A stretch of DNA of 64,000 bases, from NCBI GenBank assembly GCA_041671125.1, contig JBAZCA010000003.1, forward strand, positions 689-64,688, given 5' to 3'. The stretch comes from Patescibacteria group bacterium. GTDB taxonomy: Bacteria > Patescibacteriota > Patescibacteriia > Patescibacteriales > JBAZCA01. How positions within the stretch are numbered: position 1 is the stretch's first letter; every line of letters starts with the position of its first letter. A model generated the notes under the pieces. The model did not search any database and was not told the DNA's origin. It saw nothing but the letters and a program-made list of their open reading frames with translations. Shown piece after piece: positions 4,548 through 61,730 of the stretch. The position numbers were made by a program, and so were the translations under genes.

Positions 4548-5459
4548 ATGTCTAAAAAATCCGTAAAAATTCTTATCATCTCTAATTTGCTGTTTTTAGT
4601 TTTTTGTTTCACGCTTTTTCCCTCTTTGGCAAACGCCTGTAATTGCATGTGCTCTTTTAGCGGCGGCGCGGAACAATACGTCGGTACAGCTTCTGATAAT
4701 AATTGCAATTATTTTTGGTGCGATACTACCAAAGGCATGTCCGGCAGTCCGCATTGCGCTACTGACTCAACCCAGCAAACCGGCGCCGCCAATTTCACCC
4801 CCCAAATCGGCATTCCGGGTTCGGAGTTCCAGCAGGGCGCGTCCATCGCGGTTTCCAATAATACGGCCACTATCGCCAATTATGTCAAAGCCATTTACAA
4901 ATATTTAATCGGCATCGTCGGGATTACGGCGGCCATAATGCTTATGGTCGGCGGCGTAGTCTGGCTTACGGCCGGCGGCTCGCCGGAGCGAGTCAAACAG
5001 GCGCAGGATTATATCGTCGGCTCTCTAACCGGATTAGCCTTGGCTTTAGGATCTTTTTTAATTTTGGGCATGATAAATCCAGCCTTGGTGAATTTCAGGA
5101 TTTCGGGGATTGGAACGGTAAGTAGCCCTGCTCCATCCTCATCCACGACAGTGTCGGGCGTATCAACTACGGGATGTTGTAACGGCAGATATGGTTGCAT
5201 TGCTCCGTCAAAAGATGATTGCAATAATAATGGCGGAAACTGGCTTGACGCGACTAGCATAAATTACACGTGTGAAAACAACTATACTTGTACTGAAATA
5301 AAGAAAGAAGAGTTGGGGTGTTGTGAATTTTACGCGTTTATGAAGATTGGAAAAACCTGCCAGGGAAATCTTAATTATAGTGCCTGCATGAAGCTAGTAG
5401 ATAACCCCACCTTTAGTAAGGGTTACACGTGCGTTAGTCCTAATTGTGTTCCTCATTAA
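4548..5459 (+). CDS. secreted/membrane protein: VirB2/TrbC-like pilin core with Cys-rich N- and C-terminal regions (P1)
   Basis: Signal peptide MSKKSVKILIISNLLFLVFCFTLFPSLANA. Two-helix core IYKYLIGIVGITAAIMLMVGGVVWLTAGGSPERVKQAQDYIVGSLTGLALALGSFLIL, then a Ser/Thr linker and a C-terminal head with many Cys. Confidence 0.6.
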   Translation: MSKKSVKILIISNLLFLVFCFTLFPSLANACNCMCSFSGGAEQYVGTASDNNCNYFWCDTTKGMSGSPHCATDSTQQTGAANFTPQIGIPGSEFQQGASIAVSNNTATIANYVKAIYKYLIGIVGITAAIMLMVGGVVWLTAGGSPERVKQAQDYIVGSLTGLALALGSFLILGMINPALVNFRISGIGTVSSPAPSSSTTVSGVSTTGCCNGRYGCIAPSKDDCNNNGGNWLDATSINYTCENNYTCTEIKKEELGCCEFYAFMKIGKTCQGNLNYSACMKLVDNPTFSKGYTCVSPNCVPH

Positions 5460-10529: not shown

Positions 10530-10555
10530 AATGCAAAATGACAAAATTATTTTAT

Positions 10556-10635
10556 CGTCATCCTGAGCGTAGCGAAGGATCCCGTGAACAGAGCTATTGC
10601 CACGAGATTCTTCGGCCTTCGGCCTCAGAATGACG
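10556..10635. repeat. GC-rich double-hairpin repeat (CGTCATCCTGAGC...CTCAGAATGACG family), copy 1
   Basis: Outer arms cgtcatcctgag / ctcagaatgacg and inner arms gaaggatcccgtg / cacgagattcttc. Flanked by inverted AAAATGN heptamers. A second copy lies at 37624-37726. Confidence 0.75.
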
Positions 10636-10661
10636 AATTCAATTTTTACATTTTACATTAT

Positions 10662-20649: not shown

Positions 20650-21679
20650 AAAAAAATTTTCTTAAGACTCTAAAAACACTATATACCTTATACCACTTAT
20701 TTTCAAAGACCATATCAAACGTCCCCGGATAACTTATTTCTCTGCCGCCGAATCCCCGTTTAAAGCGTGTTACGCCCGGCCATTTTTTTTCGTCAATGCC
20801 GTAAAAATCATAATACCGGTAACCCTGGCACTTTGCCAGCTTAATCGTTTCCCACTGCAGAAGAAAAGGCGCCATTACGTTCCGGGATTCGCTTGAAGAG
20901 GCGCCGTGGATATAAGTAACCGTGTCCCCAAAAAATCCAACAATATTGGCCGCTATAACTCTACTGTTATATACGGCAAAATATAATTTAATCTTCAAGT
21001 TCTCCTTGCTGTTTTTTTCCCGGCTACAGTCTAATGACAGCATTTTGTCATAATATTTCTCCCCATGCAAACGAAAACCATCCCTCTTGCAGGTATCATC
21101 CAATAAGCACCAAAAACTATCAAATTCACCTGCCTCGGCCTCCCTGATAATTACCCCTTTTTTTTCCGCCAGCCGGATATTATATCTCGTTTTCGGATGC
21201 ATTTCTTTTAACAACTCTTCCTCGCTTACTGACAGGTTAAGGATTGCGGTTTTTGACGGCTGAACATCCAGCGTCCGCGCAAATTCCAAATTCTCCGCCA
21301 AAGGCGGATCCGCCTCGGGCAGGCAAATTCCAAATTCCAAATTATTTTCCGGTTCAAAACGCAGGAATATCGCATTTTGCTGTTTCGCCAAATCTTTAAT
21401 TGCGTCAAAAAATAATTTGTAATTTGGAATTTGTAATTTGTAATTAACGATCGGTCCTCTCGGACAATAAAAATAACTCTTGCCGAAAAAAAGCGGCTTT
21501 TTTATGAGTGTAGCCGCGGCAACCAGTTTTCCGCCGTCCTCCGCCCCCAGCCTGAATACTTTCTGTCCGGCCTTTTCCTGAAATTCTCCCCATTCCCAGG
21601 ATTGGTGAAAAACGCTGTTATCGGAATTACCAATAAATTCATTCAATATTTCTTTATGTTTAATAAAAACAATATTCAT
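20648..21679 (-). CDS. FemAB-family peptidoglycan interpeptide-bridge aminoacyltransferase (FemX-like)
   Basis: FHQSWEWGEFQEK, RYNIRLAEKKGV and YIHGASSSESRNVMAPFLLQWETIKLAKCQGYRYYDFYGI are typical of FemAB. Confidence 0.8.
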   Translation of the reverse strand: MNIVFIKHKEILNEFIGNSDNSVFHQSWEWGEFQEKAGQKVFRLGAEDGGKLVAAATLIKKPLFFGKSYFYCPRGPIVNYKLQIPNYKLFFDAIKDLAKQQNAIFLRFEPENNLEFGICLPEADPPLAENLEFARTLDVQPSKTAILNLSVSEEELLKEMHPKTRYNIRLAEKKGVIIREAEAGEFDSFWCLLDDTCKRDGFRLHGEKYYDKMLSLDCSREKNSKENLKIKLYFAVYNSRVIAANIVGFFGDTVTYIHGASSSESRNVMAPFLLQWETIKLAKCQGYRYYDFYGIDEKKWPGVTRFKRGFGGREISYPGTFDMVFENKWYKVYSVFRVLRKFF

Positions 21680-21703: not shown

Positions 21704-22279
21704 TTATTTTCCTAATTTTCTTAAAGCCTGGCGAATCCGCTCGCCCGAATCCTTGATATTCGCGTCCACTTCCCGCAAAGCCTCCCGCGCCTGCCCGAGA
21801 GAATAACCTAAGGCCATCAAAGCGTCAATCTCGTCGCCGGACGCTCCCATGCCGCCCGTACTTTTCTCGCCAGCCGGAAGATAGGCAATCTTATCCCTTA
21901 ATTCCAATACCACGCGTTCAGCAGTTTTTTTTCCGATGCCGGAAACTTTAGTTAAGAGGTGCGGGTCGCCGTGACTTATCGTTTCCTTTATTTCTTTGGG
22001 GCTGGCGATGGAGAGAACGCCCAAAGCCGACTTCGGGCCGATGCCGGAAACCGAGAGAAGCAGTTCAAAAAATTCCAGCTCTTCCAAAGTTTTAAACCCG
22101 AAAAGATCCAGCGAGTCTTCCCGGACATGCTGGTGGGTATAAAATTCCGCCGGCTCCCCGGCGGAGATTTCGCTAAAAGCCGGCGGACTTAAAAAAATCT
22201 TATAGCCGACGTCATGGGCTTCTAAAATCACGTAACCCTGGCCTTTGGCTAAAATTTTTCCTTTTAAATAAGAAATCAT
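21704..22279 (-). CDS. ruvA: Holliday junction branch migration complex subunit RuvA
   Basis: MISYLKGKILAKGQGYVILEAHDVGYKIF start and HhH motifs GIGPKSA / GIGKKTAERV. Start moved to the internal ATG at 22279 to remove the overlap with the upstream gene. Confidence 0.9.
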   Translation of the reverse strand: MISYLKGKILAKGQGYVILEAHDVGYKIFLSPPAFSEISAGEPAEFYTHQHVREDSLDLFGFKTLEELEFFELLLSVSGIGPKSALGVLSIASPKEIKETISHGDPHLLTKVSGIGKKTAERVVLELRDKIAYLPAGEKSTGGMGASGDEIDALMALGYSLGQAREALREVDANIKDSGERIRQALRKLGK

Positions 22280-22292
22280 AATATCCCGCGAC

Positions 22293-23612
22293 TCATAACC
22301 CATAGACCACAACACCTCTATTATCCGGGGCATGCTTTATAAGTCTTCTTAAGACGCTAAACTCAGGAATTAAAAAATTGCTTTCTATTAAAATCACCCG
22401 GTCGCTCCCGCCGTGCGCCTCAGCCAGATATTCGCCGGTCTCGGCGTCAGTCATATTATTCAGCTTCATTTTTATTATATCATAAACCGGGCTCACAATC
22501 TCAATTTCTTCGCCGACCCTTAACGTATTATGCACTTTAATACCTAACAAATATTTCTTATTTCTTACTTCTAACTTCTTGATTTTTACCACCTGCCCGC
22601 AAAATTCCCAATCGCAATTTTCTTTGGAAGTCGCGAGATTTTGCGCCAGCTTTCCCTCGTTAAAAAGAAACCCGGTCGTATAACCGCGGTTAAAAATTTT
22701 CTCTTCCAGATCGCTTTGCAACCGGCTGACCAGTTTAGCGTTACTCAAATTTTCCATGGCTTTTTTGTAAGCGCCAACCACGGTCGCGATATAATACACG
22801 CTCTTGGTCCGGCCTTCAATTTTAAAAGAAGTAACCCCGGCTTCAGCTAATTCCCGCAGATGTTTTATCAAGCACAAATCTTTTGAATTCAAAATATAAG
22901 AATAACCATCTTCCTCATAAAGTTCAAAGATGCCATTAACACCATCAGGGATGATCAACTTCTCACTTTTTACTTCTAACTTCTTACTTTTAACTTGATA
23001 CGGCCACCGGCAGGGCTGGACGCAGTCGCCGAGATTGGCGCTCCGGCCGGTTAAATATTTTGATAAAAAACAGCGACCCGAATAGGCCATGCACATGGCG
23101 CCATGGACAAAATATTCCAGTTCCAGTTTTGGCGCGGCTTTTTTTATGGCTTTAATATCTTTGAGGCTGGTTTCTCGCCCGAGAACAATCCGGCTGACAC
23201 CCTCTTTAAACCAGAACTTCGCGGCCGATGAATTTATACAATTCGCCTGGGTGGAAAGATGGATTATCGCTTTTGGCCAGATTTTTTTTACCGCGCTCAG
23301 TATGCCCGGATCGGAAATCACCAGGGCGTCCACTTTCATTTTTTTCATCTCCCGGATAATGCCGGGCAGTTTCTTAAAATGATCCTCGTGGGCGAAAATA
23401 TTAAACGTCGCGTAAACCCGCTTTTCCATCTTATGAGCGTAATCCACGGCTTTCTTAACAGACTTTAAATCAAAATCGTTAATCCGCGCCCGGAGCGAAT
23501 AATCCGGGATGCCGAGATAAACCGCGTCCGCCCCGAAAGCGAAAGCGGTCTTCATTTTTTCCAGGTTGCCGGCGGGAGCCAGGAGTTCAATTCTATTATT
23601 ATTCCTCATCAT
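22293..23612 (-). CDS. peptidase U32 family protein
   Basis: ELLAPAGNLEKMKTAFAFGADAVYLG and the ...EGR.KS..Y.. region. Contains two in-frame ACTTCTN heptamer arrays (22553-22587, 22958-22999). Confidence 0.85.
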   Translation of the reverse strand: MMRNNNRIELLAPAGNLEKMKTAFAFGADAVYLGIPDYSLRARINDFDLKSVKKAVDYAHKMEKRVYATFNIFAHEDHFKKLPGIIREMKKMKVDALVISDPGILSAVKKIWPKAIIHLSTQANCINSSAAKFWFKEGVSRIVLGRETSLKDIKAIKKAAPKLELEYFVHGAMCMAYSGRCFLSKYLTGRSANLGDCVQPCRWPYQVKSKKLEVKSEKLIIPDGVNGIFELYEEDGYSYILNSKDLCLIKHLRELAEAGVTSFKIEGRTKSVYYIATVVGAYKKAMENLSNAKLVSRLQSDLEEKIFNRGYTTGFLFNEGKLAQNLATSKENCDWEFCGQVVKIKKLEVRNKKYLLGIKVHNTLRVGEEIEIVSPVYDIIKMKLNNMTDAETGEYLAEAHGGSDRVILIESNFLIPEFSVLRRLIKHAPDNRGVVVYGL

Positions 23613-28143: not shown

Positions 28144-29379
28144 CTATTTTATCCTTATATTTAACATTACCTTTTTTCCCCTCGCCTTAGTCGCGTAATA
28201 ACCGGTTAACAGTCCGGCAATCTCCAAAATATCTTCTTCACTCTTTATTTTCTCCATTTCAAGCCTCATTAAATCAAATTTTTCCGGAATTTTCATTTCT
28301 AATAAATCATTCTTAATTTGTAATTTGTAATTTGTAATTCGCATAAGCGTCGTCGGCCCCATCGTCCTTTCCAATCTTACCACGATATCCCCTTTTTTCG
28401 CCAGTCTTTCCAGTTTTTCGCTCTCAGCCTTATCCCGGCCGACTACAACTAAAACCCAATGGAAATTTATGTCGGCTTCCACTTTTACGTCTTTCAAATT
28501 CGCGCCGGTGAGCGATTTTAATGAATTCTTTAAAAATAAAGTAACTTTTGGCGTTTTTTGGCGTTTTCTCGCGGCTTCCGGCATGGCTAATTTCAGCCAA
28601 AACACCCGCCCGTGTTTTAACAATTCTACGTCTTCGGTTTTGCAATCCGGGCAATGAGTAATAATATCTAAAACTTTTTTTGACCCTTCCGGGTCGGTTA
28701 AAAGACAGCCGCCGGCGGGCGTTGGATAATCTTTAATGCCAAATTTTCCAGCCAATTTCATCTGCTCTTCTCTAGATCGGCCTTCAATATTCAGAAGCTT
28801 TTCCCGCTTTACCAGGCCTTTCTTTTCCATAGCCGTTTCCGGCAGGAGCCTCGCTGACAATGGCCGCAAAACCTCCACCCCCGCCATCCTTACCACTCTT
28901 AATAATGCTTCTTTATTTTGAGAAAACGGCCGCTGGCCAAGCACCTCGCCGGTAGCGATAAAGTCAAAAATGTCACATCCCCTCCCCGCGACGTCAGGAG
29001 TCGGGGAGGGGTTGGGGGTGGGGTGTTGCGGGAAAGACGAAGAAAGAATTTTCCGAGGAGCGGCTCCAGGTTTTAAATACTTACCAGCTTCGCGGATCAT
29101 GAGACTGTGGCAGTCTATGCAGGGATTCATGTTTTTTCCGTAACCGCAGGACGGGCATTTCACGATTGATAAAATCTTTTCCGCAAGATCCTCTTCAATC
29201 AAATTAATCTTAAGTTCCTTCGCGCTCTCCCGCGCCCGCTCGCAATTAAAAAAATTACTGGAAAAACAGATTCCAATAACTTCTATCCCCTGATTCATTA
29301 GCACTTTGGCGGCGAGCATTGAATCCAGTCCGCCGGAAAAAAGGACAAGAGCTCTCGCTTCATTTTTGCTTTTTCCCAT
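28144..29379 (-). CDS. PP-loop ATP pyrophosphatase family protein, tRNA-thiolation-like (ThiI/MnmA-related)
   Basis: SGGLDS PP-loop, NPCIDCH and ATGEVLGQRPFSQ motifs. Carries an in-frame GC palindrome (28979-29027) and a TAATTTG heptamer array (28314-28341). Confidence 0.55.
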   Translation of the reverse strand: MGKSKNEARALVLFSGGLDSMLAAKVLMNQGIEVIGICFSSNFFNCERARESAKELKINLIEEDLAEKILSIVKCPSCGYGKNMNPCIDCHSLMIREAGKYLKPGAAPRKILSSSFPQHPTPNPSPTPDVAGRGCDIFDFIATGEVLGQRPFSQNKEALLRVVRMAGVEVLRPLSARLLPETAMEKKGLVKREKLLNIEGRSREEQMKLAGKFGIKDYPTPAGGCLLTDPEGSKKVLDIITHCPDCKTEDVELLKHGRVFWLKLAMPEAARKRQKTPKVTLFLKNSLKSLTGANLKDVKVEADINFHWVLVVVGRDKAESEKLERLAKKGDIVVRLERTMGPTTLMRITNYKLQIKNDLLEMKIPEKFDLMRLEMEKIKSEEDILEIAGLLTGYYATKARGKKVMLNIRIK

Positions 29380-31027: not shown

Positions 31028-34000
31028 CTATTTTTTTACTATCCCTAGCCAAAGCTCTTGTCCTTCCACTTTCACATTTTTTTCCGCGAGAATTGCTTCG
31101 CTCCCGCCTTCGGCCAAAGCGTCGGCCAAAGTGTCCTTTATTATTGAGTCCCTGTAATTACTTATGGCTTTTTTTATTTCTTCATCAGCAGTCGCGTAAT
31201 AAATTTCAATCCGGTCTTTAATTGTCAGTCCGGCATCTTTTCGCATGCCATTCACCAGGCGGACAATTTCGCGTTTTACGCCTTCCTGCTTTAATTCAGG
31301 GGTGATTTTCGTGTCCAGCTCCACTTCCATATTACCTTTTCCGGAGCTCACAATCACATTTTTAACATTCACCTCGTCTTTTATTAATTCAACAAACTCA
31401 TTATCAATTCGTAATTCATAATTCTTAATTTTTAATTCATTCAATGGTTGTCTGACTTTTATTCCCGCCTCATCCCTTTTCGCCAGCGCCAATTCCACGA
31501 TTTGTCTGACCGTTTCCATATCTTTTAAAATTCTGTTGTCTGTTATCTGCTGTCTGTTGTCTAATTTTGGCCACGCTTCCAAATGCACCGATTTATTCTC
31601 ATCCTTAAAATCATTCCCGGTTATTCTCTGCCAGATATTTTCCGCCGAGAACGGCATATAGGGCGCCATGACTTTTACGAGCTGTGAAAGAACATGGGCG
31701 GTAGTCTTTATAGCCGCTTCTTTGTCTTTCTCGTCATCAGATTTAAACCGATCCCTTGACCTTCTTAAATACCAGGTTGATAAATCGTCAATAAATTCGG
31801 TAATCGGCCGGGCGCCGGAAGGCAAATCGTATCTTTCCAAAGCCGCGGTTACCTCTTTGGTAAGCTGGTTAAGCCGCGTCAGTATCCATTCATCCAAAAT
31901 ATTTTTTTTCCTTTCTTTAGAAACTCCCTCTCCCTGATCCGCCAGTTGGCGGAGAATAGGGGGAGGGACGGGGAGGGGGCTTGCGCCATCACCCGCAAAC
32001 ATTTCGTAAAACTTATAAACATTCCAAAGCAGGATTACGTTTTTCCGGAGCGAAGTTTGCAAATCCGTTTCCGAAAGGCTCATGTCGTCGCCGAGCATGA
32101 TAGGAGAAGACATAAAATACATTCGTAGAGCGTCGGAGCCGTATTTTTCCAGGGTCGCTTTCGGATCCGGGTAATTGCCGTAGGACTTGCTCATCTTCCG
32201 GCCGTCAGTCCCGGCGAGTACTCCGGTAGTAATAACATTTTTAAAAGCCCGGTCGCCAAACAAAGCGTTGCCAAGGACATGGAGATAATAGAACCAGCCG
32301 CGGAGCTGCCCGGTATATTCAATGATAAAATCGGCCGGGAAAAGATTTTTCCACTCATTTTTTCTTTCAAAAGGGTAGTGAAACTGCCCGAACGGCATAG
32401 CGCCGGACTCAAACCAACAATCCAAAACCTCCGGCACCCGGCGCATCAACCCGCCGCATTTATCGCAAGGAAATTCTGTTTCATCAATTCCGGGCTTATG
32501 CAAATCAGTTATTTTTTTCCCGCTTAACTTTTCCAGCTCTTCAATTGACCCGACCACTTTTATTTCCTTGCACTTATTCTCTTCCGCATTTTTGGAATTT
32601 GGAATTTGGAATTTGGAATTTCCCGTGCATTTCCAGACCGGTATGGGCGAGCCCCAGTAGCGCGAACGGGAAAGGCACCAATCCGGAGCCGATTCAAGGT
32701 TGTAGCGAAACCGGCCTTCTTTAAAATGTTCCGGCACCCAATTTATTTTTTCGTTAGTCTTAATCATCTTTTCCCGAATATCGGAAATCTTTAAGTACCA
32801 GGCTTTCTGCGCCTTATAGATCAAAGGCGTGCCGCAACGGTAGCAAAAAGGATAGCTATGGGTGTAGTCAAAAGAGGAAAATAGCCTTTCGCCCAAATCT
32901 TCAAAGACTTTTTTTCCGGCTTTGGAAAAATACTGCCCGGCCCAATCACCGGCGTTTTTCGTGTAAATCCCGTTTTCGTCCATCAAATCCACCATCGGTA
33001 AACCGGATTTTTTTCCCAGCTCAAAATCGTCCTCGCCGAAATTCGGGGCGATATGGACGATTCCGGTCCCTTCTTCGGTATTAACAAACCCGCCCGCGTA
33101 AATTTTAAACGCGTTCCTGTTTTCTTTTATTATTTCATTGCCTAAATCAAACAAAGGCTCGTATTCCAGTCCGAGTAAATCCTTGCCTTTTAATTCGGAG
33201 AGTAGCTTATATTCTTTTTCTTTAAAAATTTCTTCTGTTTTTTCCTTGGCTAAAACATATATTTCTTTACCGATCGCAACAACCTGGTAAACCACATCTT
33301 CTCCCACCGCCAGCGCTAAATTTCCCGGCAAAGTCCAAGGCGTCGTCGTCCAGGCCAGCATATAAACATCGCTGTTGACTTTTTCTTTCGGTAAATTCTT
33401 AATTCTTAATTCGTAATTCTTAATTCTAAATTTCACCACCACCGACTTTTCCCGGACATCTTTGTACGACCCGGCGTCCATGGTAATTTCAAACTTGGAC
33501 AAAGGCGTGGCGCAGCGCGGGCAATGGAGTGACGAACGGTAGCCTTCATAAATAAGGCTATCGTCATACAACTTTTTAAAAGCCCAGATAACGCTTTCCA
33601 TAAAAGAAAGATCCATGGTTTTGTAAGCGTTTCGCATGTCCACCCATCTTCCGATCCGGTTAATATACCATTCCCATTGTTCCGAGCCGACATTAACATA
33701 ATTGCGGCAGGCGGCGATGAATTTATCCACTCCGAGTTTTTCAATATCTTTTTTATTTCGGAGGCCTAGTTCCTGCTCAACTTTATTTTCGGCCGGTAAA
33801 CCGTGGCAGTCCCAGCCCCAAACCCGCTCCACCCGGTAACCTTTCATGGTCCAGTATCGCGGAACGACGTCTTTGGCAATGCTCGGCAATAACGTGGCGT
33901 AATGTGGCAGGCCGGTGATAAACGGCGGGCCATCGTAAAAAACATAATCAGGCGGATTTTTTCCCTCCTCACTAAGGAGGGGACTAAGGGGAGGTTTTGC

Positions 34001-34105
34001 TACAGATTTTTCAAAAATTTTCGCCCGATTCCAAAATTCCAAAACTTCCTCTTCCATTTTTGGAAAGGGATTTGATGAGGCTTTTTTATCTTTTTCATTA
34101 GTCAT
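31028..34105 (-). CDS. ileS: isoleucine--tRNA ligase (type 2)
   Basis: PFITGLPHYATLLP (HIGH-like), WTTTPWTLPGN and KMSKSYGN; 1025 aa. Contains at least six in-frame repeat insertions (see findings). Confidence 0.97.
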   Translation of the reverse strand: MTNEKDKKASSNPFPKMEEEVLEFWNRAKIFEKSVAKPPLSPLLSEEGKNPPDYVFYDGPPFITGLPHYATLLPSIAKDVVPRYWTMKGYRVERVWGWDCHGLPAENKVEQELGLRNKKDIEKLGVDKFIAACRNYVNVGSEQWEWYINRIGRWVDMRNAYKTMDLSFMESVIWAFKKLYDDSLIYEGYRSSLHCPRCATPLSKFEITMDAGSYKDVREKSVVVKFRIKNYELRIKNLPKEKVNSDVYMLAWTTTPWTLPGNLALAVGEDVVYQVVAIGKEIYVLAKEKTEEIFKEKEYKLLSELKGKDLLGLEYEPLFDLGNEIIKENRNAFKIYAGGFVNTEEGTGIVHIAPNFGEDDFELGKKSGLPMVDLMDENGIYTKNAGDWAGQYFSKAGKKVFEDLGERLFSSFDYTHSYPFCYRCGTPLIYKAQKAWYLKISDIREKMIKTNEKINWVPEHFKEGRFRYNLESAPDWCLSRSRYWGSPIPVWKCTGNSKFQIPNSKNAEENKCKEIKVVGSIEELEKLSGKKITDLHKPGIDETEFPCDKCGGLMRRVPEVLDCWFESGAMPFGQFHYPFERKNEWKNLFPADFIIEYTGQLRGWFYYLHVLGNALFGDRAFKNVITTGVLAGTDGRKMSKSYGNYPDPKATLEKYGSDALRMYFMSSPIMLGDDMSLSETDLQTSLRKNVILLWNVYKFYEMFAGDGASPLPVPPPILRQLADQGEGVSKERKKNILDEWILTRLNQLTKEVTAALERYDLPSGARPITEFIDDLSTWYLRRSRDRFKSDDEKDKEAAIKTTAHVLSQLVKVMAPYMPFSAENIWQRITGNDFKDENKSVHLEAWPKLDNRQQITDNRILKDMETVRQIVELALAKRDEAGIKVRQPLNELKIKNYELRIDNEFVELIKDEVNVKNVIVSSGKGNMEVELDTKITPELKQEGVKREIVRLVNGMRKDAGLTIKDRIEIYYATADEEIKKAISNYRDSIIKDTLADALAEGGSEAILAEKNVKVEGQELWLGIVKK

Positions 34106-37623: not shown

Positions 37624-37726
37624 CCCCGTCATCCTGAGCGGAGTGAAACGGAGCGAAGGATCTCGTGTTTAGCGGAAATGCCACGAGATTCTTCGTCCCG
37701 AGTGCTCGGGACTCAGAATGACGGGG
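37624..37726. repeat. GC-rich double-hairpin repeat (CGTCATCCTGAGC family), copy 2
   Basis: ccccgtcatcctgagc...gaaggatctcgtg...cacgagattcttc..gtcccgag tg ctcgggac tcagaatgacgggg. Same orientation as copy 1 at 10556-10635. Confidence 0.75.
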
Positions 37727-37768: not shown

Positions 37769-39433
37769 ATGAATAAAATTTCCTTTAAGACGATATTCTG
37801 GACGCTTTTTTACGTTTTTCTTTTCTGCCTGCTTTTGAACAATTCTTTCGGCTATCTTGATCCGGACTTGGGCTGGCATCTTAAAGCCGGGGAAGATATT
37901 CTAAGAGAAAAAAGCGTGCCTCATCTTAACTATTATAATTATACCTTGGAAAGGACGACTTGGGTAGACCATGAATGGCTTATTAATCTCGTCTCGTTTC
38001 TAATTTATTCTCGCTCCGGCAATATTGGCCTGAATATTTTTTTCGCCCTGCTGGCGCTTTCGACCTTAGCCGCTTTGCATGTTTTCGCGAAAAAACAGCT
38101 AGCAGGTTCAGAGGACAGTCCCGGCAATGTCCTTTTGGTTGTCTTTTTTATGATTTTAGGAGTTATCGCCATGTCGCCGCACCTCGGAGTCAGGATGCAG
38201 GAAACCGCCCTTTTATGCCTCGTGTTCCTATATATAATTTTGCGCCGCTATGATGAAAAAAAAGATTTTAAAATCCTTCTTATCCTGCCCCTGCTTTTTT
38301 ATTTCTGGGCTTCGGCTCACGCCAGCTTCCTGATTGGACTTTTCCTTATTTTTTTAAGGCTCATTACCATGCTTATGGAGAATACTCTAATTAAATATTT
38401 TCCCGGCTCAAAAATCAGTTCTTTTTTCGGGCTAAAAACGCCGTTGGATAGAAGGCATATCGCGTCTCTCGCTGTTTTTTTTGGCCTCAGCCTTATTGCC
38501 ACGCTCCTCACTCCTTACGGCCTGGAGCTTTACGGGTTCTTAAGTGATTACGGTAATACTTTTTACATGACCCATATAGCCGAATGGCTGCCGGCCTGGT
38601 ATTTGCCGATCGCTTACTGGCAGATGGCCTACATGGCTTTTGCCTTGGCCGGCCTTTTGCTTTACTCGCTTAACAAAAATAAGGAAGAGGGGGCTGGTTT
38701 ATGGGAATTTTCGCTTTTTTTCCTTTTCATGGCTCTGGCCTTTAAATCCAAAAGGCATTTCCCGCTGTTTTTTATCAGTTCCTTTCCTCTAATATTGAAT
38801 AGCTACGGAAGCGTTCTTTGGGGCGAATCGGCTCTCGGCGCGTCCTCCGGTCGTAACGAAGACGCCGGGGCCGGCGCTTCTTCCGGATTTTTTAGCGACG
38901 CGCCAAAATTCCCCCGGGTAATCCTCATTACTACCATAATCCTTGTTTCCGCGAGCCTTCTTCTAAAAACTAATTTTATATCCAACCCTTTTAAATATTT
39001 TTGCGGCGACTATCCTTGCGGGGCGTCTTCATTTTTAAAAGCCAGCCCCCAATATGAAAAACTGAACATCTTTAATGAATACGCCTGGGGCGGTTATCTT
39101 ATCTGGACTTACCCGGAAAGAAAACTTTTTATTGATGGCCGCCTGCCGCAACTGCCTTTCAAAAAACACACTTTTTTAGAAGAATATTTTGAATTGCTTG
39201 ATAAAGATAAGCTCGCCGCGAAGCTTAATGAATACGATATCCGGCTGGTTTTAATCCGAGCCAGCGAAAGGAAAATAAGATTCAATTTTATTGAAAAGAA
39301 AATCCTCGGACTTAACGAAGAAAAAGAAAATAAAGGCAAAAACGAACTGGCCGAGTTTTTAAAAAGTTCCGGCGCCTGGCGCGAAATTTACCGCGATGGT
39401 TTGGCGGTTATTTACTTATATGAAAACCGTTGA
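37769..39433 (+). CDS. large polytopic membrane protein, possible GT-C-type glycosyltransferase
   Basis: 554 aa with many hydrophobic helices, an early loop motif LDPDLGWHLKAGEDIL..VDHEWL, and a soluble C-terminal domain. Followed by, and overlapping, a GT2 gene. The functional call is tentative. Confidence 0.45.
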   Translation: MNKISFKTIFWTLFYVFLFCLLLNNSFGYLDPDLGWHLKAGEDILREKSVPHLNYYNYTLERTTWVDHEWLINLVSFLIYSRSGNIGLNIFFALLALSTLAALHVFAKKQLAGSEDSPGNVLLVVFFMILGVIAMSPHLGVRMQETALLCLVFLYIILRRYDEKKDFKILLILPLLFYFWASAHASFLIGLFLIFLRLITMLMENTLIKYFPGSKISSFFGLKTPLDRRHIASLAVFFGLSLIATLLTPYGLELYGFLSDYGNTFYMTHIAEWLPAWYLPIAYWQMAYMAFALAGLLLYSLNKNKEEGAGLWEFSLFFLFMALAFKSKRHFPLFFISSFPLILNSYGSVLWGESALGASSGRNEDAGAGASSGFFSDAPKFPRVILITTIILVSASLLLKTNFISNPFKYFCGDYPCGASSFLKASPQYEKLNIFNEYAWGGYLIWTYPERKLFIDGRLPQLPFKKHTFLEEYFELLDKDKLAAKLNEYDIRLVLIRASERKIRFNFIEKKILGLNEEKENKGKNELAEFLKSSGAWREIYRDGLAVIYLYENR

Positions 39434-41470: not shown

Positions 41471-44137
41471 TTAATTTCCACTTTTAAGCTTTTCCAGCTC
41501 AATTTTCCAATTTTCCAGTTTTTCTTTTTCCTTTTTAATTATTTCCTCCGGCGCTTTTTCCATAAATTCTTTATTTTCTAAACGCCCGGTAAGCCCGCTG
41601 ATCATTTTTTCCAAACGCTCCACTTCTTTTTTTATCCGCTCTTTTTCCTTTACTTCATCAATCGCACCGACAAGGTAAATTTCAACGCCGCCGACTGCCG
41701 CGTGGATCGCTTTTTCAATTTTCTCTCCGGTTTCCAGAATTTCCAGTTCGTTGATACCGGTCCGAAGTCCTTTTATTAATCCGGCCTGCGATTCAATCAA
41801 TTTAATATCCTTTCCGGCATAAATTATGGCTTTGACTTTTTTCGCCGGTTCAACTTTATTTTCCGCCCGCGCGTTCCTTATGGACTTAATCACTTCAATT
41901 ACTATATCAAATCCGCTCTCCTCATATTCCGCCGCTTTTTCCTCCGGCCACTCGGTTATCAAAAGCGGCTTATCAGCGCCTAGTCCGCTCCAGACGGCCT
42001 CAGTAATAAAAGGGATAAAAGGATGCCAGAGTTTTAGTAATCCCTCAAGGACATATTTAAGAACTTTGTTCTTTTCGGATGTTTTTTCAAATTTGCTTAA
42101 TTCAAGATACCAGTCAGCAAATTCGCTCCGGGTGAAATCTCTTAGCTTTTCGCCGGCCTGGGAAAACCTAAAGTTGCTAAAATCATTATTAACCTGTTTT
42201 ATCAAAGCCTGAAATTTCGCCAAAATCCATTTATCCGCCAAAGTCAGATTAGCATTATTAAATTCCGAATTCCCAACGCCATTCTCCTGGTTAGAAAAAA
42301 CGAATAAGGAAATATTCCAGAGTTTAGTGATAAAATTCCTCGCGCCGATAATTTTTTCCTCGTAAAATTTTGAATCATTTCCCGGCGATACTCCTAAAAG
42401 GAGGCTCAGGCGGAGCGAATCAGTGCCATAGTCCCTTATTACGTCCAGCGGGTCAATATTATTGCCGGATGATTTTGAAAACTTCCGGCCCTTTTCGTCG
42501 CGCAACATGCCGTGGATATATACGTCGCGGAAAGGAATTTCATCTAGCGTGTAAGTCGTCATTAAAATCATCCGCGCCATCCAAAAAAATAAAATTTCAT
42601 AACCCATCTGCATCCAGGCAGTCGGATGGAATGTCTTTAAATCATCATTATCGGCGGGTTTACCCGCCGTAGCTTCAGCGGAGGCGGGCCACCCAAGGGT
42701 TGAAAAAGTCCATAACGCCGAAGAATACCAGGTGTCCAAAGTATCTTCGTCTTGGATCCACCCCTCGCCTTCCGGAGGTTCAATCCCAACATAAATATCT
42801 TCCAAATTTTTGGAATTTGGAATTTGAGATTTGGAATTTGCATACCATACGGGTATGCGGTGTCCCCACCAAATTTGCCGCGAAATGCACCAGTCGCGCA
42901 AATTATCAATCCAGTTTAAATAAGTCTTATGGAACCTCTCCGGAATGATGGTTATTTTTTGAGCCGGATCGTTATTTAAGCCGGCCTCAACCGCTTCCCG
43001 CATCAGGTCTTTTAAACTTTTTCCTTTTCCCGGGATGATTTTATTGACGCTTACGAACCACTGCTCTTTTATCTGAGGTTCAACCAAACCATCACTCCGA
43101 TCCCCTTTGGCGACCCGATGAATATAATCTTCTTCCACCTTAACCAAAAGATTTTTTTCTTTTAATCTTTCTATTATCTTCGGTCTGGCTTTTAGAATAT
43201 CCATTCCTGCAAACTCACCCGCGATCGGCATCAATTCGCCGTTAAAATCAATAATTTGTTCTCCCTCTAAATTGTGTCTTTCCGCGATTTCAAAATCAAC
43301 CATGTCATGCCATGGCGTAATAGTCATGACTCCGGTTCCAAATTCCGGTTCAATGATACTATCCTTAATTATCGTTGCCGTAACCTTTCCATTAATCCAT
43401 TCACATTCAAACTTATCACCGTGTTTGTATTGCGCGTACCGTTCATCATCCGGATGCATAACTACATATTTGTCGCCAAATTTGGTTTCCGGGCGGGCGG
43501 TCGCGATTACGAATGGGCCGTATTGAAGATAATAAAAGGGCGCTTTTTCCTCGTGCCAAACTATCTCGTCGTCGGAAATTGTAGTTTGGAGTTTTGCATC
43601 CCAATTAACAATCCTTTTTCCGCGATAGATAAGCCCGTCGTCGTACATTTTTTTAAAAACCGTATTAACCGCCAGGTTGCGCTCGTCGTCAAAAGTATAA
43701 GCCAGGCGCGACCAGTCGCAGGAAGTCCCCATCTTCCGAATCTGCGAAAGGATGGTGGCTTTTGATTCTTCGGCATATTTTTTTATCTCTTTTAAAAGCC
43801 CCTCACGCCCGAGTTCCTGCCTCGGATTTTTTACGCCCTTTTCCATTAAGAGTTTTTCCACTTTAGCCTGCGTGGCCACGGCCGCGTGATCGGTTCCGGG
43901 GACGAGAAGAACTTTTTTTCCGCACATCCGCTGATAACGAGCCATGACGTCCATGAGGGAGTTTTCTAAAGCATGCCCAAGATGCAAAACTCCGGTAACG
44001 TTCGGCGGCGGCATCATGATTGAATAGGGATCGCCTTTCAGATTATCAGGATTAAAAAAACCCGACTGTTCCCATTTTTCATAAATTCCGTCTTCGTGCT
44101 CGGCTGGGTTATAGGTTTTGGGCAATTCTTTTTTCAT
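41471..44137 (-). CDS. valS: valine--tRNA ligase
   Basis: PPPNVTGVLHLGHA, KFSKSSGN and a C-terminal coiled coil; 888 aa. In-frame TGGAATT array at 42811-42838. Confidence 0.97.
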   Translation of the reverse strand: MKKELPKTYNPAEHEDGIYEKWEQSGFFNPDNLKGDPYSIMMPPPNVTGVLHLGHALENSLMDVMARYQRMCGKKVLLVPGTDHAAVATQAKVEKLLMEKGVKNPRQELGREGLLKEIKKYAEESKATILSQIRKMGTSCDWSRLAYTFDDERNLAVNTVFKKMYDDGLIYRGKRIVNWDAKLQTTISDDEIVWHEEKAPFYYLQYGPFVIATARPETKFGDKYVVMHPDDERYAQYKHGDKFECEWINGKVTATIIKDSIIEPEFGTGVMTITPWHDMVDFEIAERHNLEGEQIIDFNGELMPIAGEFAGMDILKARPKIIERLKEKNLLVKVEEDYIHRVAKGDRSDGLVEPQIKEQWFVSVNKIIPGKGKSLKDLMREAVEAGLNNDPAQKITIIPERFHKTYLNWIDNLRDWCISRQIWWGHRIPVWYANSKSQIPNSKNLEDIYVGIEPPEGEGWIQDEDTLDTWYSSALWTFSTLGWPASAEATAGKPADNDDLKTFHPTAWMQMGYEILFFWMARMILMTTYTLDEIPFRDVYIHGMLRDEKGRKFSKSSGNNIDPLDVIRDYGTDSLRLSLLLGVSPGNDSKFYEEKIIGARNFITKLWNISLFVFSNQENGVGNSEFNNANLTLADKWILAKFQALIKQVNNDFSNFRFSQAGEKLRDFTRSEFADWYLELSKFEKTSEKNKVLKYVLEGLLKLWHPFIPFITEAVWSGLGADKPLLITEWPEEKAAEYEESGFDIVIEVIKSIRNARAENKVEPAKKVKAIIYAGKDIKLIESQAGLIKGLRTGINELEILETGEKIEKAIHAAVGGVEIYLVGAIDEVKEKERIKKEVERLEKMISGLTGRLENKEFMEKAPEEIIKKEKEKLENWKIELEKLKSGN

Positions 44138-50955: not shown

Positions 50956-52365
50956 TCACGCTTTTCCTAAAAACCTCTTCTTTCTTAAAAGCCGGTGATA
51001 GCCGATGGCAAAACGGTGGGCTTCGTCTCTGACCCGCTTAATTAAATGCAAGGCGGGCGAGGCGAGCGGCAGTTCCAAAGGAGTTTTTTCCCCGGCGAAA
51101 AAAAGCTTGTCCGGCGCTAAGGCTGATCTTAAACCTTCACCTTTTGAAATAGCGATTACCGGAATATCCAGTTTATATTTTTTCAGCGCGCGCAAAGCCA
51201 CGTTCAATTGCGCCTTGCCGCCGTCAATAATTACGAGGTCCGGCAAAGGCCAATTATCTTTCTCTCGCCCCCTCCCCTCTGATTCGCCAGCTGGCGGAGA
51301 TAGGGGGAGGTCAGGGAGGGGGTTTTTGCGAGAGAGAAAATGTTTAAATCTCCTCGCTAGCACCTCTTCAAGCATTTTTATATCCCCGCCGCGAGCCTTT
51401 AAGCCGGTAAAAATTATCTTATCCGCCTTAATCTTAAATTTCCGATACTGGCTTCTATCGGGCTCGCCGCCGGAAAATACCACCATTGATCCGACCGCCT
51501 CTCTGCCGAAAATATTAGATATATCATAGCCTTCAATCCGTTCAGGCACAACCGGCAATGACATTATTTTCGCGAGTTCCAGAACGTCGTTTTGGTATTT
51601 TTCCCCGATACTTATAACCCGGGACATTTCAATAACTTTTTCTATATTTAACAAACGATAATTAAGGAGGTCAATATTTTTTTCCAACAATTCTCTTTCT
51701 TCTCCGTTAGCCGGTAAATTTTTAATTCGTAATTCATAATTCTTAATTCTTTTCTTTATATCGTTAACCACGTCCTTTTTCCTTCCTTCTAAAAATCTTA
51801 TGACCTGTTTTACGTACTCAAGATACTCTTTATGGCTGATTTTTTTTTCGCACATTCCGGCGCACTTACCAACGTAATAATACAGGCAGGCGCGTTTTGG
51901 TAAATTATAGCAAGTTCGGTAGGGCCAGATCCGACGGATGATTTTTAAAGTTTCACGCACCGCCAGTCCTGAAATAAACGGACCGAAATATTTTCCGGAT
52001 TTATCAATCGTCCGGGTGGAGTAAATCCGCGGCCACTCCTCTTCAACGGAAACCTTTATATAAGAAAAGCGTTTGTCGTCGCGGAACAGGATATTGTATT
52101 TAGGCTGATATTTTTTTATCAGGTTAGCTTCCAGTAAAAACGCCTCTACTTCGCTTTCCACTGTTATCCATTTTACGCGCGCGATTTCCCCGACCATGCG
52201 CTCTTTGGCCGGCGTAAGACCAGAACCTTTTTGCCAATATGAAAGAACGCGGGATTTCAGGTTTACCGCTTTTCCCGCGTAAATAATTTCCCCGGCGCCG
52301 TCAAAAAATTCATAACAGCCGGGAGATTCGGGAATGTTCAATTTTTTTATTTGTTCCAGCTTCAT
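50956..52365 (-). CDS. uvrC: excinuclease ABC subunit C, short form (469 aa)
   Basis: GIY-YIG (PGCYEFFDGAGEIIYAGKAVNLKSRV) and an RNase H-like endonuclease region (IEGYDISN, DGGKAQL, DEAHRFAI). It ends before any (HhH)2 domain. Carries an in-frame heptamer array and a GC palindrome. Confidence 0.85.
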   Translation of the reverse strand: MKLEQIKKLNIPESPGCYEFFDGAGEIIYAGKAVNLKSRVLSYWQKGSGLTPAKERMVGEIARVKWITVESEVEAFLLEANLIKKYQPKYNILFRDDKRFSYIKVSVEEEWPRIYSTRTIDKSGKYFGPFISGLAVRETLKIIRRIWPYRTCYNLPKRACLYYYVGKCAGMCEKKISHKEYLEYVKQVIRFLEGRKKDVVNDIKKRIKNYELRIKNLPANGEERELLEKNIDLLNYRLLNIEKVIEMSRVISIGEKYQNDVLELAKIMSLPVVPERIEGYDISNIFGREAVGSMVVFSGGEPDRSQYRKFKIKADKIIFTGLKARGGDIKMLEEVLARRFKHFLSRKNPLPDLPLSPPAGESEGRGREKDNWPLPDLVIIDGGKAQLNVALRALKKYKLDIPVIAISKGEGLRSALAPDKLFFAGEKTPLELPLASPALHLIKRVRDEAHRFAIGYHRLLRKKRFLGKA

Positions 52366-54133: not shown

Positions 54134-54323
54134 GAGATGCGAGCATTGAAAAATTTCGGCGATAATCGCGAGCGTAGAAAGTGTGCAAAATTCCACTGCT
54201 TGAGGAGTCCCGCCATCAGGCGGGGCGACGAGTTTGGAATTTTGCTAGCTTTCCTAGCGAGTGATCCGAAATTTTTCCTGCTCGCGATTTTTGCGCCACT
54301 TTTTCTAAAAAAGTGGCAAAAAG
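54133..54323 (+). ncRNA. about 190-nt highly structured repeat element (unclassified), copy 1, filling the proS-proC spacer
   Basis: Nested long-range helices (gcgagcattgaaaaatttcgg/ccgaaatttttcctgctcgc; gcaaaattcca/tggaattttgc; cccgcc/ggcggg) plus a 3' hairpin gccactttttctaaaaaagtggc. The second copy at 61544-61730 shows compensatory changes. The strand and RNA nature are inferred. Confidence 0.5.
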
Positions 54324-57628: not shown

Positions 57629-57715
57629 TTTTTGTGGACGCTAGTGGACTCGCCCGGCATCCAGCATACGCCAGACAAGTCCGCCGGGCGTCCAGCGAAT
57701 GCTGGACGAACCTTA
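57629..57715 (-). repeat. conserved tRNA-Val trailer, copy A (ends with a 24-nt duplicate of the tRNA-Val-GAC 3' end)
   Basis: Minus-strand TAAGGTTCGTCCAGCATTCGCTGGACGCCCGGCGGACTTGTCTGGCGTATGCTGGATGCCGGGCGAGTCCACTAGCGTCCACAAAAA. Nearly identical to 61453-61540. 57629-57652 repeats 57726-57749. Confidence 0.8.
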
Positions 57716-57731: not shown

Positions 57732-57805
57732 TGGACGCTAGTGGACTCGAACCACTGACCTTTACGATGTCAACGTAACGCTCTAACCAACTGAGCTAAG
57801 CGTCC
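57732..57805 (-). tRNA. tRNA-Val (anticodon GAC)
   Basis: Folds by hand into a 74-nt cloverleaf: GGACGCT/AGCGTCC acceptor, GCTC/GAGC D stem, TTACG-TTGACAT-CGTAA anticodon arm, AGTGG-TTCGAGT-CCACT T arm. No encoded CCA. Confidence 0.9.
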
Positions 57806-57822
57806 TGTTAATTTTCTCCCTG

Positions 57823-57896
57823 TGCGCCCAGATGGACTTGAACCATCGACCCCGGCTTTATAAGAGCCGTGCTCTAACCAGCTGAGCTATGGGCGC
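57823..57896 (-). tRNA. tRNA-Ile (anticodon UAU)
   Basis: 74-nt cloverleaf: GCGCCCA/TGGGCGC acceptor, CGGCT-CTTATAA-AGCCG anticodon arm (TAT at positions 34-36), GATGG-TTCAAGT-CCATC T arm. Confidence 0.85.
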
Positions 57897-61374: not shown

Positions 61375-61448
61375 GGACAATTAGCTCAGTTGGTTAGAGC
61401 GCACGCTTCACACGCGTGAGGTCGGAGGTTCGAGCCCTCCATTGTCCA
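61375..61448 (+). tRNA. tRNA-Val (anticodon CAC)
   Basis: 74-nt cloverleaf: GGACAAT/ATTGTCC acceptor, CACGC-TTCACAC-GCGTG anticodon arm, GGAGG-TTCGAGC-CCTCC T arm. Confidence 0.9.
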
Positions 61449-61452: not shown

Positions 61453-61540
61453 TAAGGTTCGTCCAGCATTCGCTCCCCGCCCGGCGGACTTGTCTGGCGT
61501 ATGCTGGATGCCGGGCGAGTCCACTAGTGACCACAAAAAA
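61453..61540 (+). repeat. conserved tRNA-Val trailer, copy B
   Basis: Differs from copy A only at GGAC->CCCC and CGT->TGA. Inverted relative to copy A. Confidence 0.8.
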
Positions 61541-61543: not shown

Positions 61544-61730
61544 AGAGATGCGAGCATTGAAAAATTTCGGAAAAATCATGAGCGTGGAAGCCGTGTAAAA
61601 TTCCACTGTCTGAGGACCCGCCGAATCGGCGGGGACGAGTTTGGAATTTTACTAGGCTTCACAGCGAATGATCCAAAATTTTTCCTGCTCGCAATTTTTG
61701 CGCAACTTTTTCTAAAAAAGTTGCAAAAAT
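61544..61730 (+). ncRNA. about 190-nt highly structured repeat element, copy 2
   Basis: Collinear with 54133-54323. Helix changes are compensatory (gtaaaattcca/tggaattttac, gcaac/gttgc, gaagcc/ggcttc). Followed by a terminator. Confidence 0.5.

Follow-up and report, generated by a model that had tools for sequence, protein, structure and literature searches.

Palindromes inside uvrC and ileS of a Patescibacteria bacterium carry the core of a widespread hairpin repeat family and are probably selfish DNA

Palindromic selfish DNA lying in frame within conserved genes is already known, from the Rickettsia palindromic elements (RPEs) and from some MITEs, or miniature inverted-repeat transposable elements (PMC2229807, PMC10969869). 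RPEs, as summarised in PMC2229807 (citing Ogata et al. 2000), are stem-loop palindromes of 105-146 bp confined to Rickettsia; they occur between genes and in frame in conserved genes whose orthologues lack them, and are regarded as passengers of permissive protein regions, either neutral or slightly deleterious. The MITEs with intragenic copies (ERIC/IRU, the 107-bp Correia element, YPAL) come from Proteobacteria and have terminal inverted repeats and TA target duplications (PMC2229807, PMC10969869). Repetitive extragenic palindromes (REPs) are extragenic by definition; their inverted doublets, the REPINs, are thought to be mobilised by Y1/HUH transposases (REP-associated tyrosine transposases, RAYTs), and each of their families is described as tied to a single RAYT and a single lineage (PMC3116915, PMC3337134). 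Here, we analysed two GC-rich palindromes in the genes uvrC and ileS of a bacterium of the Patescibacteria group, a member of the Candidate Phyla Radiation (CPR), within a stretch of 64,000 nucleotides of contig JBAZCA010000003.1 (hereafter the window). Both are probably copies of a hairpin-type selfish repeat, comparable to RPEs or REP/REPINs, that is tolerated in permissive loops. The novelty lies in the group of the host, in a hairpin that is very small, modular, and nested, in its distribution across phyla, and in the number of essential genes entered.

The genes, the palindromes, and the hairpin modules at their cores are as follows.

50956..52365, minus strand: uvrC open reading frame (ORF), 469 aa, identified by the ORF list, translation, Pfam and PDB UvrC matches; UvrC in the source annotation
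51261..51335, plus strand: nested GC-rich palindrome in uvrC (the earlier note quoted 51262-51323), with outer arms TTCTCTCG/CGAGAGAG, C-rich arm CCCCCTCCCCT, core module, and G-rich arms GGGGGAGG and GGGAGGGGG; the minus (coding) strand translates as approximately FLSRKNPLPDLPLSPPAGESEGRGREK, aa ~343-369
51279..51299, plus strand: core hairpin module in uvrC, CTGA-TTCGCC-AGCT-GGCGGA-G
31028..34105, minus strand: ileS ORF, 1025 aa, with class I tRNA synthetase, anticodon-binding, and DUF5915 domains
31924..31980, plus strand: GC-rich palindrome in ileS, with C-rich arm CTCCCTCTCC, core, and G-rich arms GGGGGAGGG and GGGGAGGGGG; the minus strand translates as SPLPVPPPILRQLADQGEGV, aa ~709-728
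31934..31954, plus strand: core hairpin module in ileS, CTGA-TCCGCC-AGTT-GGCGGA-G

The earlier note, made from the letters alone, had presented the two segments as homologous imperfect palindromes and as inserted selfish or structural DNA, not conserved protein. Both segments are present exactly as it quoted them, and formal alignment bears out their homology: the local alignment score is 65, whereas the uvrC element scores at most 22 against all other 110-nt tiles of the window, on either strand. Aligned on the coding strand, the two copies are identical in 49 of 58 columns and differ by three 1-nt indels. Self-complement alignment and folds agree that both are imperfect palindromes. Their RNA folds range from -28 to -39 kcal/mol (z of -1.6 to -3.5), with -37 to -39 kcal/mol for the plus strand and -28 to -33 kcal/mol for the mRNA strand, and DNA folding parameters stretch the uvrC palindrome to 51261-51335 by pairing its outer arms. 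The palindromes measure ~57-75 nt and are GC-rich within a genome of 44% GC. Each has a second G-rich segment, and that of uvrC starts with TCAG (compare the end TCAGRATGAC of the canonical elements below). The string CGCCAGYTGGCG, with at most one mismatch, gives six strand-matches at three sites of the window, against 0.45 expected, and only two of these sites are the element. The window has only these two copies of the core, in the same orientation and antisense to uvrC and ileS. Like RPEs, they are palindromes able to form a long stem-loop, in frame in conserved genes whose orthologues have no copies, and of a family that is also found in non-coding DNA. Their size, their Patescibacteria host, and the 21-nt hairpin common to several phyla set them apart, by description, from the RPE families proper.

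Codon-phase tracking revealed that both genes enter the element in one phase, reading CCC CTC CC as P-L-P. The offset between uvrC and ileS is then 1 after the first indel, 2 after the second, and 1 after the third. The core is read as SPPAGES in UvrC (TCT CCG CCA GCT GGC GAA) and as LRQLADQ in IleS (CTC CGC CAA CTG GCG GAT). The earlier claim that one core is translated in different frames therefore stands, with a nuance: internal indels were absorbed without loss of the ORF, so that the difference arises in part after a common entry phase and is no proof of two insertions in different frames. Since three 1-nt indels switch the frame inside the element, the sequences give direct evidence that the peptide would be unconstrained while the continuity of the ORF is kept. 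Four of the six frames are free of stops in the uvrC copy, and four of six in the ileS copy. If the inserts are translated, peptides such as NPLPDLPLSPPAGESEGR, or one spanning SPLPVPPPILRQLADQGEGV, would be expected.

In UvrC, the insert lies directly before PLPDLVIIDGGKAQL, as had been noticed from the sequence, and the element does encode a second PLPDL with different codons. This second PLPDL is made of the C-rich arm plus TGACCTC. We considered the repeat as a target-site duplication and rejected it: it agrees with the native PLPDL codons at only 11 of 15 nt, and the equivalent place of the ileS copy gives PLPVP. For the same reasons, the repeat is probably a coincidence.

The Pfam domains of the uvrC product are GIY-YIG, UvrC_M, and the UvrC RNase H-like endonuclease; a C-terminal HhH domain was detected by Pfam neither in this protein nor in its CPR orthologues (426-500 aa). 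We aligned 31 orthologues of UvrC and 31 of IleS, and in both alignments the insert is found in the window protein alone and is missing from the 30 others. The stretch of UvrC between RRFKH and WPLPDL is hypervariable among the 31 orthologues. In the nearest relatives (76-81% identity), its place is taken by short loops of no relation or by heptamer-like inserts, and farther ones, among them many CPR orthologues, have other hairpin-encoded Pro/Gly segments of the type 'PPxPLLxRRGE' in the loop of the palindrome. The loop SSLAPAGEGRGEGK of one UvrC orthologue (P0037) was tried as a related palindrome and dismissed, with scores of 19-23 that fall below the window background of 34. The IleS insert is missing from an orthologue with 81% identity (P0122). 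This protein and P0003 are the nearest relatives; each is 81% identical as protein and ~80% as DNA. A motif scan of the 240 retrieved homologues found the core-encoded peptides at both loops only in the window proteins, so that no palindrome-free orthologue among them has the same peptide; one IleS (P0166) has NPPAGGK, but in a different, N-terminal loop. Relative to sister contigs with ~80% identity, the window genes have net gains of 48 nt in uvrC and 51 nt in ileS (locus L124) at these loops. The insert is identical across three independent assemblies from different samples, which speaks for its fixation.

In UvrC, the segments on either side of the insert align with the C-terminal halves of solved UvrC structures, and the loop has 55 residues, compared with 17 in the Thermotoga maritima structure 2nrt. 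The AlphaFold model (mean pLDDT 67.5) has residues 347-369 as a disordered coil with pLDDT <50, between a helix (327-347) and a strand with the catalytic DGG motif. In IleS, the insert corresponds to a 16-residue gap relative to the solved IleRS 8c8v, past the end of the catalytic domain and ahead of the anticodon-binding domain (Pfam, 8c8v). The insert sites are, as modelled, permissive loops. Absence from orthologues, indels, membership in a DNA family, and permissive sites all agree with the earlier reading of the segments as inserted DNA.

The core CTGATYCGCCAGYTGGCGGAG is the 21-nt apical hairpin of a large repeat family. We scanned one genome per GTDB species (596 Gb) with the pattern CTGATNCGCCAGNTGGCGGAG (19 specified bases) and found at least 120 loci, with ~4 expected by chance. 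In high-GC genomes, the 21-mer matched where LIRQLAE or LMRQVAE happened to be encoded, and these chance matches were left out. Among the matches listed, ~49 in low-GC genomes have the common flanks (T)GTCAY-core-AAGRATC. The CPR carriers listed are Curtiss-, Gottesman-, Roizman-, Levy-, Falkow-, Jackson-, Wildermuth-, and Giovannonibacteria, WWE3, and Saccharibacteria; those listed outside the CPR are Bacteroidota, Cloacimonadota, Marinimicrobia, and uncultured Gammaproteobacteria. The hairpin, formed by the core strand CTGATCCGCCAGCTGGCGGAGAAG, has C-U paired with A-G, two tandem G·A mismatches, a 6-bp GC stem, and an AGYT loop; the counterpart tip is a GCGNAGC version. The lower stem covaries (ATTCT/AGAAT, ATCCT/AGGAT, ACTCT/AGAGT, ACCCT/AGGGT). 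For pair 11-38, 36 sequences have U-A and 6 have C-G; pair 12-37 is partly forced by the selection of the sequences, but pairs 11-38 and 10-39 are not. A covariance model (R1) detects the ileS copy with 32.4 bits (E=1.2e-6) and the uvrC copy with 24.7 bits (E=1.7e-4), and 25 nt of the ileS copy (CCTGATCCGCCAGTTGGCGGAGAA) are the same as the canonical family sequence.

The unit of the family is TCAYNCTGA-(apical hairpin)-GAAGNRT, and the module in uvrC and ileS appears, on these comparisons, to be one of several alternative tips of this widespread unit. A census of 260 sequences gave 307 units at 154 loci, with the GCGNAGC mini-hairpin as tip in 152 units (a count that is partly a product of the search design) and TCCGCCAG(C/T)TGGCGGA in 29. 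Several units are nested, with a smaller CTGA...GAAG unit inside the tip, as in locus L026. The units form 59 inverted doublets, in which the spacer has a median of 21 nt, and the full intergenic element is such a doublet of ~85-100 nt. Other genomes rich in the element are JAGLNE01, PFSC01, JAEUUA01, and JACNJG01. Canonical doublets have sharp and repeated ends (GTCAYYCTGA...TCAGRATGAC) and outer stems of 9-14 bp. The window has two of them, both detected by R1.

10555..10636, plus strand: canonical intergenic doublet, GTCATCCTGA-GCGTAGC-GAAGGATC ... GATTCTTC-GGCCTTCGGCC-TCAGAATGAC, matched by R1 on both strands; DNA fold z=-3.5 relative to shuffles
37626..37724, plus strand: second canonical intergenic doublet, upstream of ORF 37769-39433, matched by R1; DNA fold z=-5.5 relative to shuffles

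The 21-nt core is found in intergenic DNA in both orientations, and one locus (L081) has two elements in opposite orientation, in both short spacers around one gene. The mini-hairpin unit TCATYCTGAGCGNAGCGAAGRATC is present in at least 120 predicted viral contigs of IMG/VR (among them L140-L219), often several times per contig; the CCGCCAGCTGGCGG-tipped core had no match in IMG/VR. The canonical element had no BLAST match in GenBank phages or PLSDB plasmids. Over the window plus 12 loci, Rfam 15 at gathering thresholds picked up only tRNAs and one FMN riboswitch; a permissive Rfam scan of a canonical element gave matches at chance level only. No description of the family was found in the literature searched, where string searches returned only primers besides the Bpu consensus discussed below, and a literature search for CPR palindromic repeats found nothing specific.

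The window palindromes are a particular variant of this family: a CCGCCAGYTGGCGG-type module stands between CTGA and GA, and C-rich and G-rich arms replace the GTCAYY/RRATC arms. The C/G-armed variant was not found in the JGI metagenome collection, which evidently does not include the source genome, and its known copies are the two described here. Twelve loci of the metagenome scan matching TGGCGGAG(N)ATAGGGGGAGG were rejected as unrelated chance matches without a palindrome. Since the variant was not found in the JGI metagenomes, it looks lineage-specific, with one copy presumably having arisen from the other within the lineage.

Copies of the family inside genes are not restricted to the window. 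Elsewhere, at least eight genes with the core were verified with Pfam, the domains matching on both sides of the copy in one frame.

L042: SecA, core read as LIRQLAE
L055: LeuRS, a whole doublet read as ...CHSDPPVGGEESLSLSE...FARDDKG, in the inter-domain loop that also holds the insert of the window IleS
L101: another class I synthetase, in frame
L121: TsaD, core read as LRQLADQ
L012: Fe/Mn SOD, SPPAGGSG, +7 residues relative to the profile
L024: GrpE, core read as ADPPAGGD, length unchanged on balance
L053: DHH protein, TPPAGGSE, core at the end of the DHH match and near the contig end
L082: trigger factor, in frame

The genic copies use four of the five stop-free frames, with 10 sense and 11 antisense. 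A third genic element of the source genome lies about 3 kb past the right end of the window (L261 2251-2333): a complete doublet of 84 nt, or 28 codons, in frame as VILTRRFGGEESRIERANSRSFATLRMT inside the radical-SAM domain of an Elp3-like gene. Its tip, CTCGCCGATTCGGCGGG, is similar to the tip in uvrC and is not the 21-nt core. Genic inserts of the source genome measure ~55-84 nt, and those elsewhere as little as ~24-30 nt. The genome-wide census of the palindrome that the earlier note had proposed amounts here to ~75 kb of source genome read, with three genic and two intergenic copies of the family; ~10.6 kb of this was gained along the source contig (ENA ERZ27249449 k141_581842). The Elp3-like protein also has ELRIKNYELRIKSY and a second heptamer-type stretch, SHNSYLITHISQLATHNNISISHNSQL.

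Other GC-rich hairpins are frequent in the window. Perfect ones (stem of at least 7 bp, loop of 3-12 nt) number 22, compared with 3.8 expected from block shuffles, and 12 of the 22 are inside ORFs; examples are 22146-22165 (RuvA), 42652-42669 (ValRS), and 16812-16836. The hairpin in ruvA, TCCGCCGG-CTCC-CCGGCGGA, is similar to the core stem. One unrelated short hairpin is in ileS itself.

33963..33981, plus strand: unrelated short GC hairpin in ileS, CCCTCCT-CACTA-AGGAGGG, encoding PLSPLLSEEGK, aa ~40-50

It lies in an N-terminal loop, has no counterpart in orthologues, and corresponds to an 8-aa gap relative to 8c8v. Judging from these alignments, it appears to be a further in-frame hairpin insert.

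The family shares traits with several of the described systems. As in REPs and REPINs, the unit is an imperfect palindrome of ~25-45 nt, forms inverted doublets with a short spacer and a long hairpin of ~85-100 nt, is multi-copy and intergenic, and has a hairpin presumed to form in single-stranded DNA. Unlike REPs, the present copies are also intragenic, within ORFs. Unlike REPIN families, the core is common to several phyla, and 2.1 Mb of element-bearing loci yielded no RAYT close to the elements. The resemblance with MITEs concerns small non-autonomous elements with open frames, in-frame ORF fusion, stem-loop transcripts, and terminal inverted repeats (GTCAYYCTGA...TCAGRATGAC, or TTCTCTCG/CGAGAGAG in uvrC), but the present elements are smaller and modular, with a hairpin nested in a hairpin, and no parent insertion sequence was found in the window or the loci searched. 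Finally, the Bpu elements of Cycas and Ginkgo mitochondria are 36-bp short interspersed elements in multiple copies, with terminal AAGG direct repeats and the consensus AAGGTTATCCCTTTCCTGAGCGTAGCGAAGGGAAGG (quoted in PMC8297867). Their arm-CTGA-GCGTAGC-GAAG-arm' architecture recurs in the canonical window element at 10555-10636, where 17 nt of the consensus (CCTGAGCGTAGCGAAGG) are identical (10558-10580). However, the tip of the uvrC and ileS palindromes is CCGCCAGCTGGCGG, not GCGTAGC, and these have only the CTGA...GA bracket in common with Bpu. Homology with the Bpu family is a lead and is not demonstrated by this resemblance.

How could such an element spread? We propose that it multiplies at the DNA level, most likely through a single-stranded hairpin form. 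This route is favoured because the tandem G·A pairs (in a Y-GA-R context) are on one strand only, because the commonest tips, GCGNAGC, are known as very stable, and because the architecture of the doublets is that of REPINs. GCGNAGC sequences are exceptionally stable DNA mini-hairpins. A HUH/Y1 transposase that recognises hairpins might mobilise the element in trans, as has been proposed for REP/REPIN-RAYT, or the element might move by hairpin-mediated template switching or gene conversion. Copies would land regardless of genes, and genic ones would persist only in a permissive surface loop, with a length that is a multiple of three and a stop-free frame. The survivors would be transcribed and translated as a disordered loop, rich in Pro/Leu and then in Gly/Glu/Arg. 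Later selection would act on the continuity of the ORF alone, leaving sets of compensating 1-nt indels and a peptide that drifts between frames. The element itself would be neutral or slightly deleterious.

Several observations weigh against this interpretation. No Y1 or RAYT-like gene was found in the window or in the 2.1 Mb of element-bearing loci. The palindromic span in uvrC is ~75 nt, for a net gain of only ~48 nt, and the GrpE copy brings no net gain (158 residues for 157 positions of the Pfam profile); both lengths fit conversion in situ at least as well as simple insertion. The sister loops are heavily diverged, with neither an insertion boundary nor a target duplication definable there, and the exact C/G-armed variant is known from two copies only. 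The counts of the genome scan are samples, in which taxa were read from record titles and the labels of metagenome-assembled genomes taken at face value, and the production of peptides from the inserts is presumed from their reading frames. The transposase search combined tblastn with the Y1_Tnp of locus L138 and a scan for the motif HUH...NP...SS, and only L138 and L139 matched. Ten small ORFs of the window tested for a transposase were all housekeeping genes. The enzyme of L138 (11374-12178, Parcubacteria JAHILH010000001) is a 178-aa, IS200-like or RAYT-like Y1_Tnp encoded between uvrC and uvrB. It is flanked on both sides by inverted hairpins of its own, TTGGCTCCATAGTCCC...GGGCTGTGGAGCC, a REP-RAYT-like layout that is different from the family units. 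CPR genomes do, by this sequence match, appear to encode Y1_Tnp enzymes.

The lengths in uvrC and GrpE are among the points for an origin in situ, in which short loop-coding hairpins are extended by intra-strand template switching (quasi-palindrome correction) and homogenised by short-patch gene conversion. The recursive nesting of CTGA...GAAG brackets in the census (e.g., L026) speaks for it as well, as does the finding of neither a target-site duplication nor a transposase at the loci examined, and the same UvrC loop has unrelated GC hairpins or heptamer-type inserts in other lineages. We nevertheless regard it as unlikely: an identical core of 21-25 nt across many phyla cannot arise independently, so that a donor copy must move, and the sharp, repeated ends of the canonical doublets are those of discrete elements. 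One could also imagine a selected cis-acting site, where the hairpin, or the 16-bp palindrome TCCGCCAGYTGGCGGA as a duplex, would serve in protein binding, RNA processing or stability, or translational pausing. Such a role would account for a core strongly conserved across phyla on covarying lower stems, for the folding of canonical elements, which exceeds that of shuffles by far (z of -3.5 and -5.5), and for copies placed between domains, i.e., catalytic and anticodon-binding in IleRS and LeuRS, or N- and C-terminal in trigger factor. It is improbable, given that the closest orthologues of both genes lack the element, that copies stand in either orientation relative to transcription and occur in unrelated genes as well as between genes, that the uvrC and ileS mRNAs have the weaker strand with C/U mismatches, and that the asymmetry of the CTGA and GAAG flanks leaves no dyad site beyond 16 bp.

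The remaining explanations seem to us much less probable still. Selection of a Pro/Gly-rich linker or motif, with the DNA similarity as a by-product, finds an argument in the two peptides, which both start with PLP and end in a G(E/R)G-rich segment. The reading of the core in different frames (SPPAGES and LRQLADQ) essentially refutes it; moreover, neither peptide is conserved in any orthologue, the UvrC segment is predicted to be disordered, and the same DNA is found in non-coding regions and on both strands. Equally hard to credit is an intervening sequence (a mini-intron, ribosomal bypass, or intein-like element) missing from the mature proteins, even if the mRNA contains a stable hairpin and CPR are known for insertions in their rRNA genes. 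All Pfam-verified genic copies are in frame and stop-free, a constraint expected only if they are translated (frame-breaking copies were not systematically searched), there was no Rfam match to an intron or ribozyme, and the ~20-aa peptide has no intein motifs. An artefact of assembly or sequencing, or a pair of pseudogenes, is the least credible of all. The contig is metagenome-assembled and chimeric reads can create palindromes, but the identical uvrC gene with its insert comes from three independent assemblies of different samples, both ORFs are full-length with domains on either side, and the family recurs in hundreds of independent records. On balance, copies of a selfish hairpin repeat remain the reading that we consider probable.

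The earlier note had also pointed to a shared NYELRIKN array of heptamers in uvrC, at 51717-51751. The five units and the encoded peptide are as it described, and ileS has sister arrays; these are not, however, part of the palindrome.

51717..51751, plus strand: heptamer array in uvrC, AATTTTT AATTCGT AATTCAT AATTCTT AATTCTT (consensus AATTCTT, Tandem Repeats Finder (TRF)), encoding RIKNYELRIKNLP, aa 205-217
33394..33432, plus strand: heptamer array in ileS, AATTCTT x5.6, encoding FRIKNYELRIKNLP, aa ~225, a 13-aa gap relative to solved IleRS
31406..31440, plus strand: second AATTCNT-type array in ileS, encoding LKIKNYELRIDN, aa ~889

The uvrC array is inside a helix (196-215) that AlphaFold predicts with confidence. 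UvrC orthologues have at this site NYELRI(K/T)N or other heptamer peptides (FQFPISDYERKIKK, LQSSIINLQSQI, GYWILDIKK), and IleS orthologues likewise have heptamer-type peptides at the array sites. Arrays of period 7 make up 30 of the 74 TRF rows of the window, with many types of units, and 16 of the 30 are in ORFs, including ileS (four), ValRS, a FemAB-family gene, peptidase U32, uvrC, and others. They are a separate, genome-wide class of repeats, unrelated to the GC palindrome. They are also hazardous because a change of one 7-nt unit shifts the frame, as in the sister contig L124 (8200-8260), where ileS is split in two ORFs exactly at a TCTGTTG-type array. This array has three units (GACGACA x3) and the one in the window (31532-31562) has four, and the difference of 7 nt shifts the frame. 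A true frameshift, heterogeneity within the population, or collapse in the assembly could each explain the break. Cyanobacteria are said to have heptanucleotide tandem repeats of this kind, reportedly described as STRR by Mazel and colleagues in 1990. The present arrays resemble them in the tandem 7-nt units, the many variants, the dispersion in the genome, and the peptides with a period of seven residues in ORFs; they differ in host phylum and unit sequences, and many are inside essential genes, at loops where the type of heptamer varies from one orthologue to another. The term STRR is used in PMC2670836.

Examples of heptamer arrays in the window are at 5574-5605, 21413-21445, 22957-22996, 28314-28339, 31532-31562, 32591-32621, and 42809-42840, and a TTTGGAA array is common to IleS (NSKFQIPNSKN) and ValRS (NSKSQIPNSKN). 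Heptamer arrays also come as inverted pairs, with arms of 25-28 nt that are 85-96% complementary and 32-63 nt apart (48779-48806/48839-48866, 21324-21348/21409-21433, and 14726-14752/14816-14842). These pairs are at gene boundaries, with one inside the FemAB-family ORF, and would form long hairpins. Among the other repeats of the window, an 87-nt inverted repeat with 94% complementarity (57629-57715 and 61453-61539) adjoins duplicated tRNA genes (57732-57896 and 61375-61448), and a 99-nt intergenic direct repeat with 89% identity and a terminator-like hairpin is at 54224-54322 and 61631-61729. Three adjacent ORFs have DNA segments that are 68-74% identical (repeat families D1, D3, and D9; 4872-4979, 5744-6005, and 7533-7794), and two counterpart genes in locus L260 are weakly annotated as T4SS-pilin-like paralogues.

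A bolder interpretation of the family is possible, although we hold it only tentatively. The bracket CTGA-(hairpin)-GA(AG) may mark one very old and still active class of minimal single-stranded DNA hairpin replicators, which would spread recursively, hairpin in hairpin, cross phyla, and colonise essential genes with inserts of ~24-30 nt by means of a hairpin-specific enzyme. Its range would include CPR, Bacteroidota, Cloacimonadota, uncultured Gammaproteobacteria, and predicted viral contigs, and possibly plant mitochondria (Bpu). If so, no smaller mobile DNA module would be known to remodel conserved proteins, and the loop insertions that typify CPR proteins would have a general source in it.

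The insertion of palindromic DNA in conserved genes has so far been a textbook curiosity of Rickettsia. Here, it is seen in the Candidate Phyla Radiation, in UvrC, IleRS, and an Elp3-like protein of one genome. The stereotyped bracket, with its tandem G·A pairs and its GNA or GC-stem tips, points to a specific mechanism acting on single-stranded DNA. Such inserts are not protein homology and can mislead annotation, alignment, and structure prediction. CPR proteins are rich in lineage-specific loop insertions, and a hairpin repeat provides a concrete source, at the level of DNA, for some of them.

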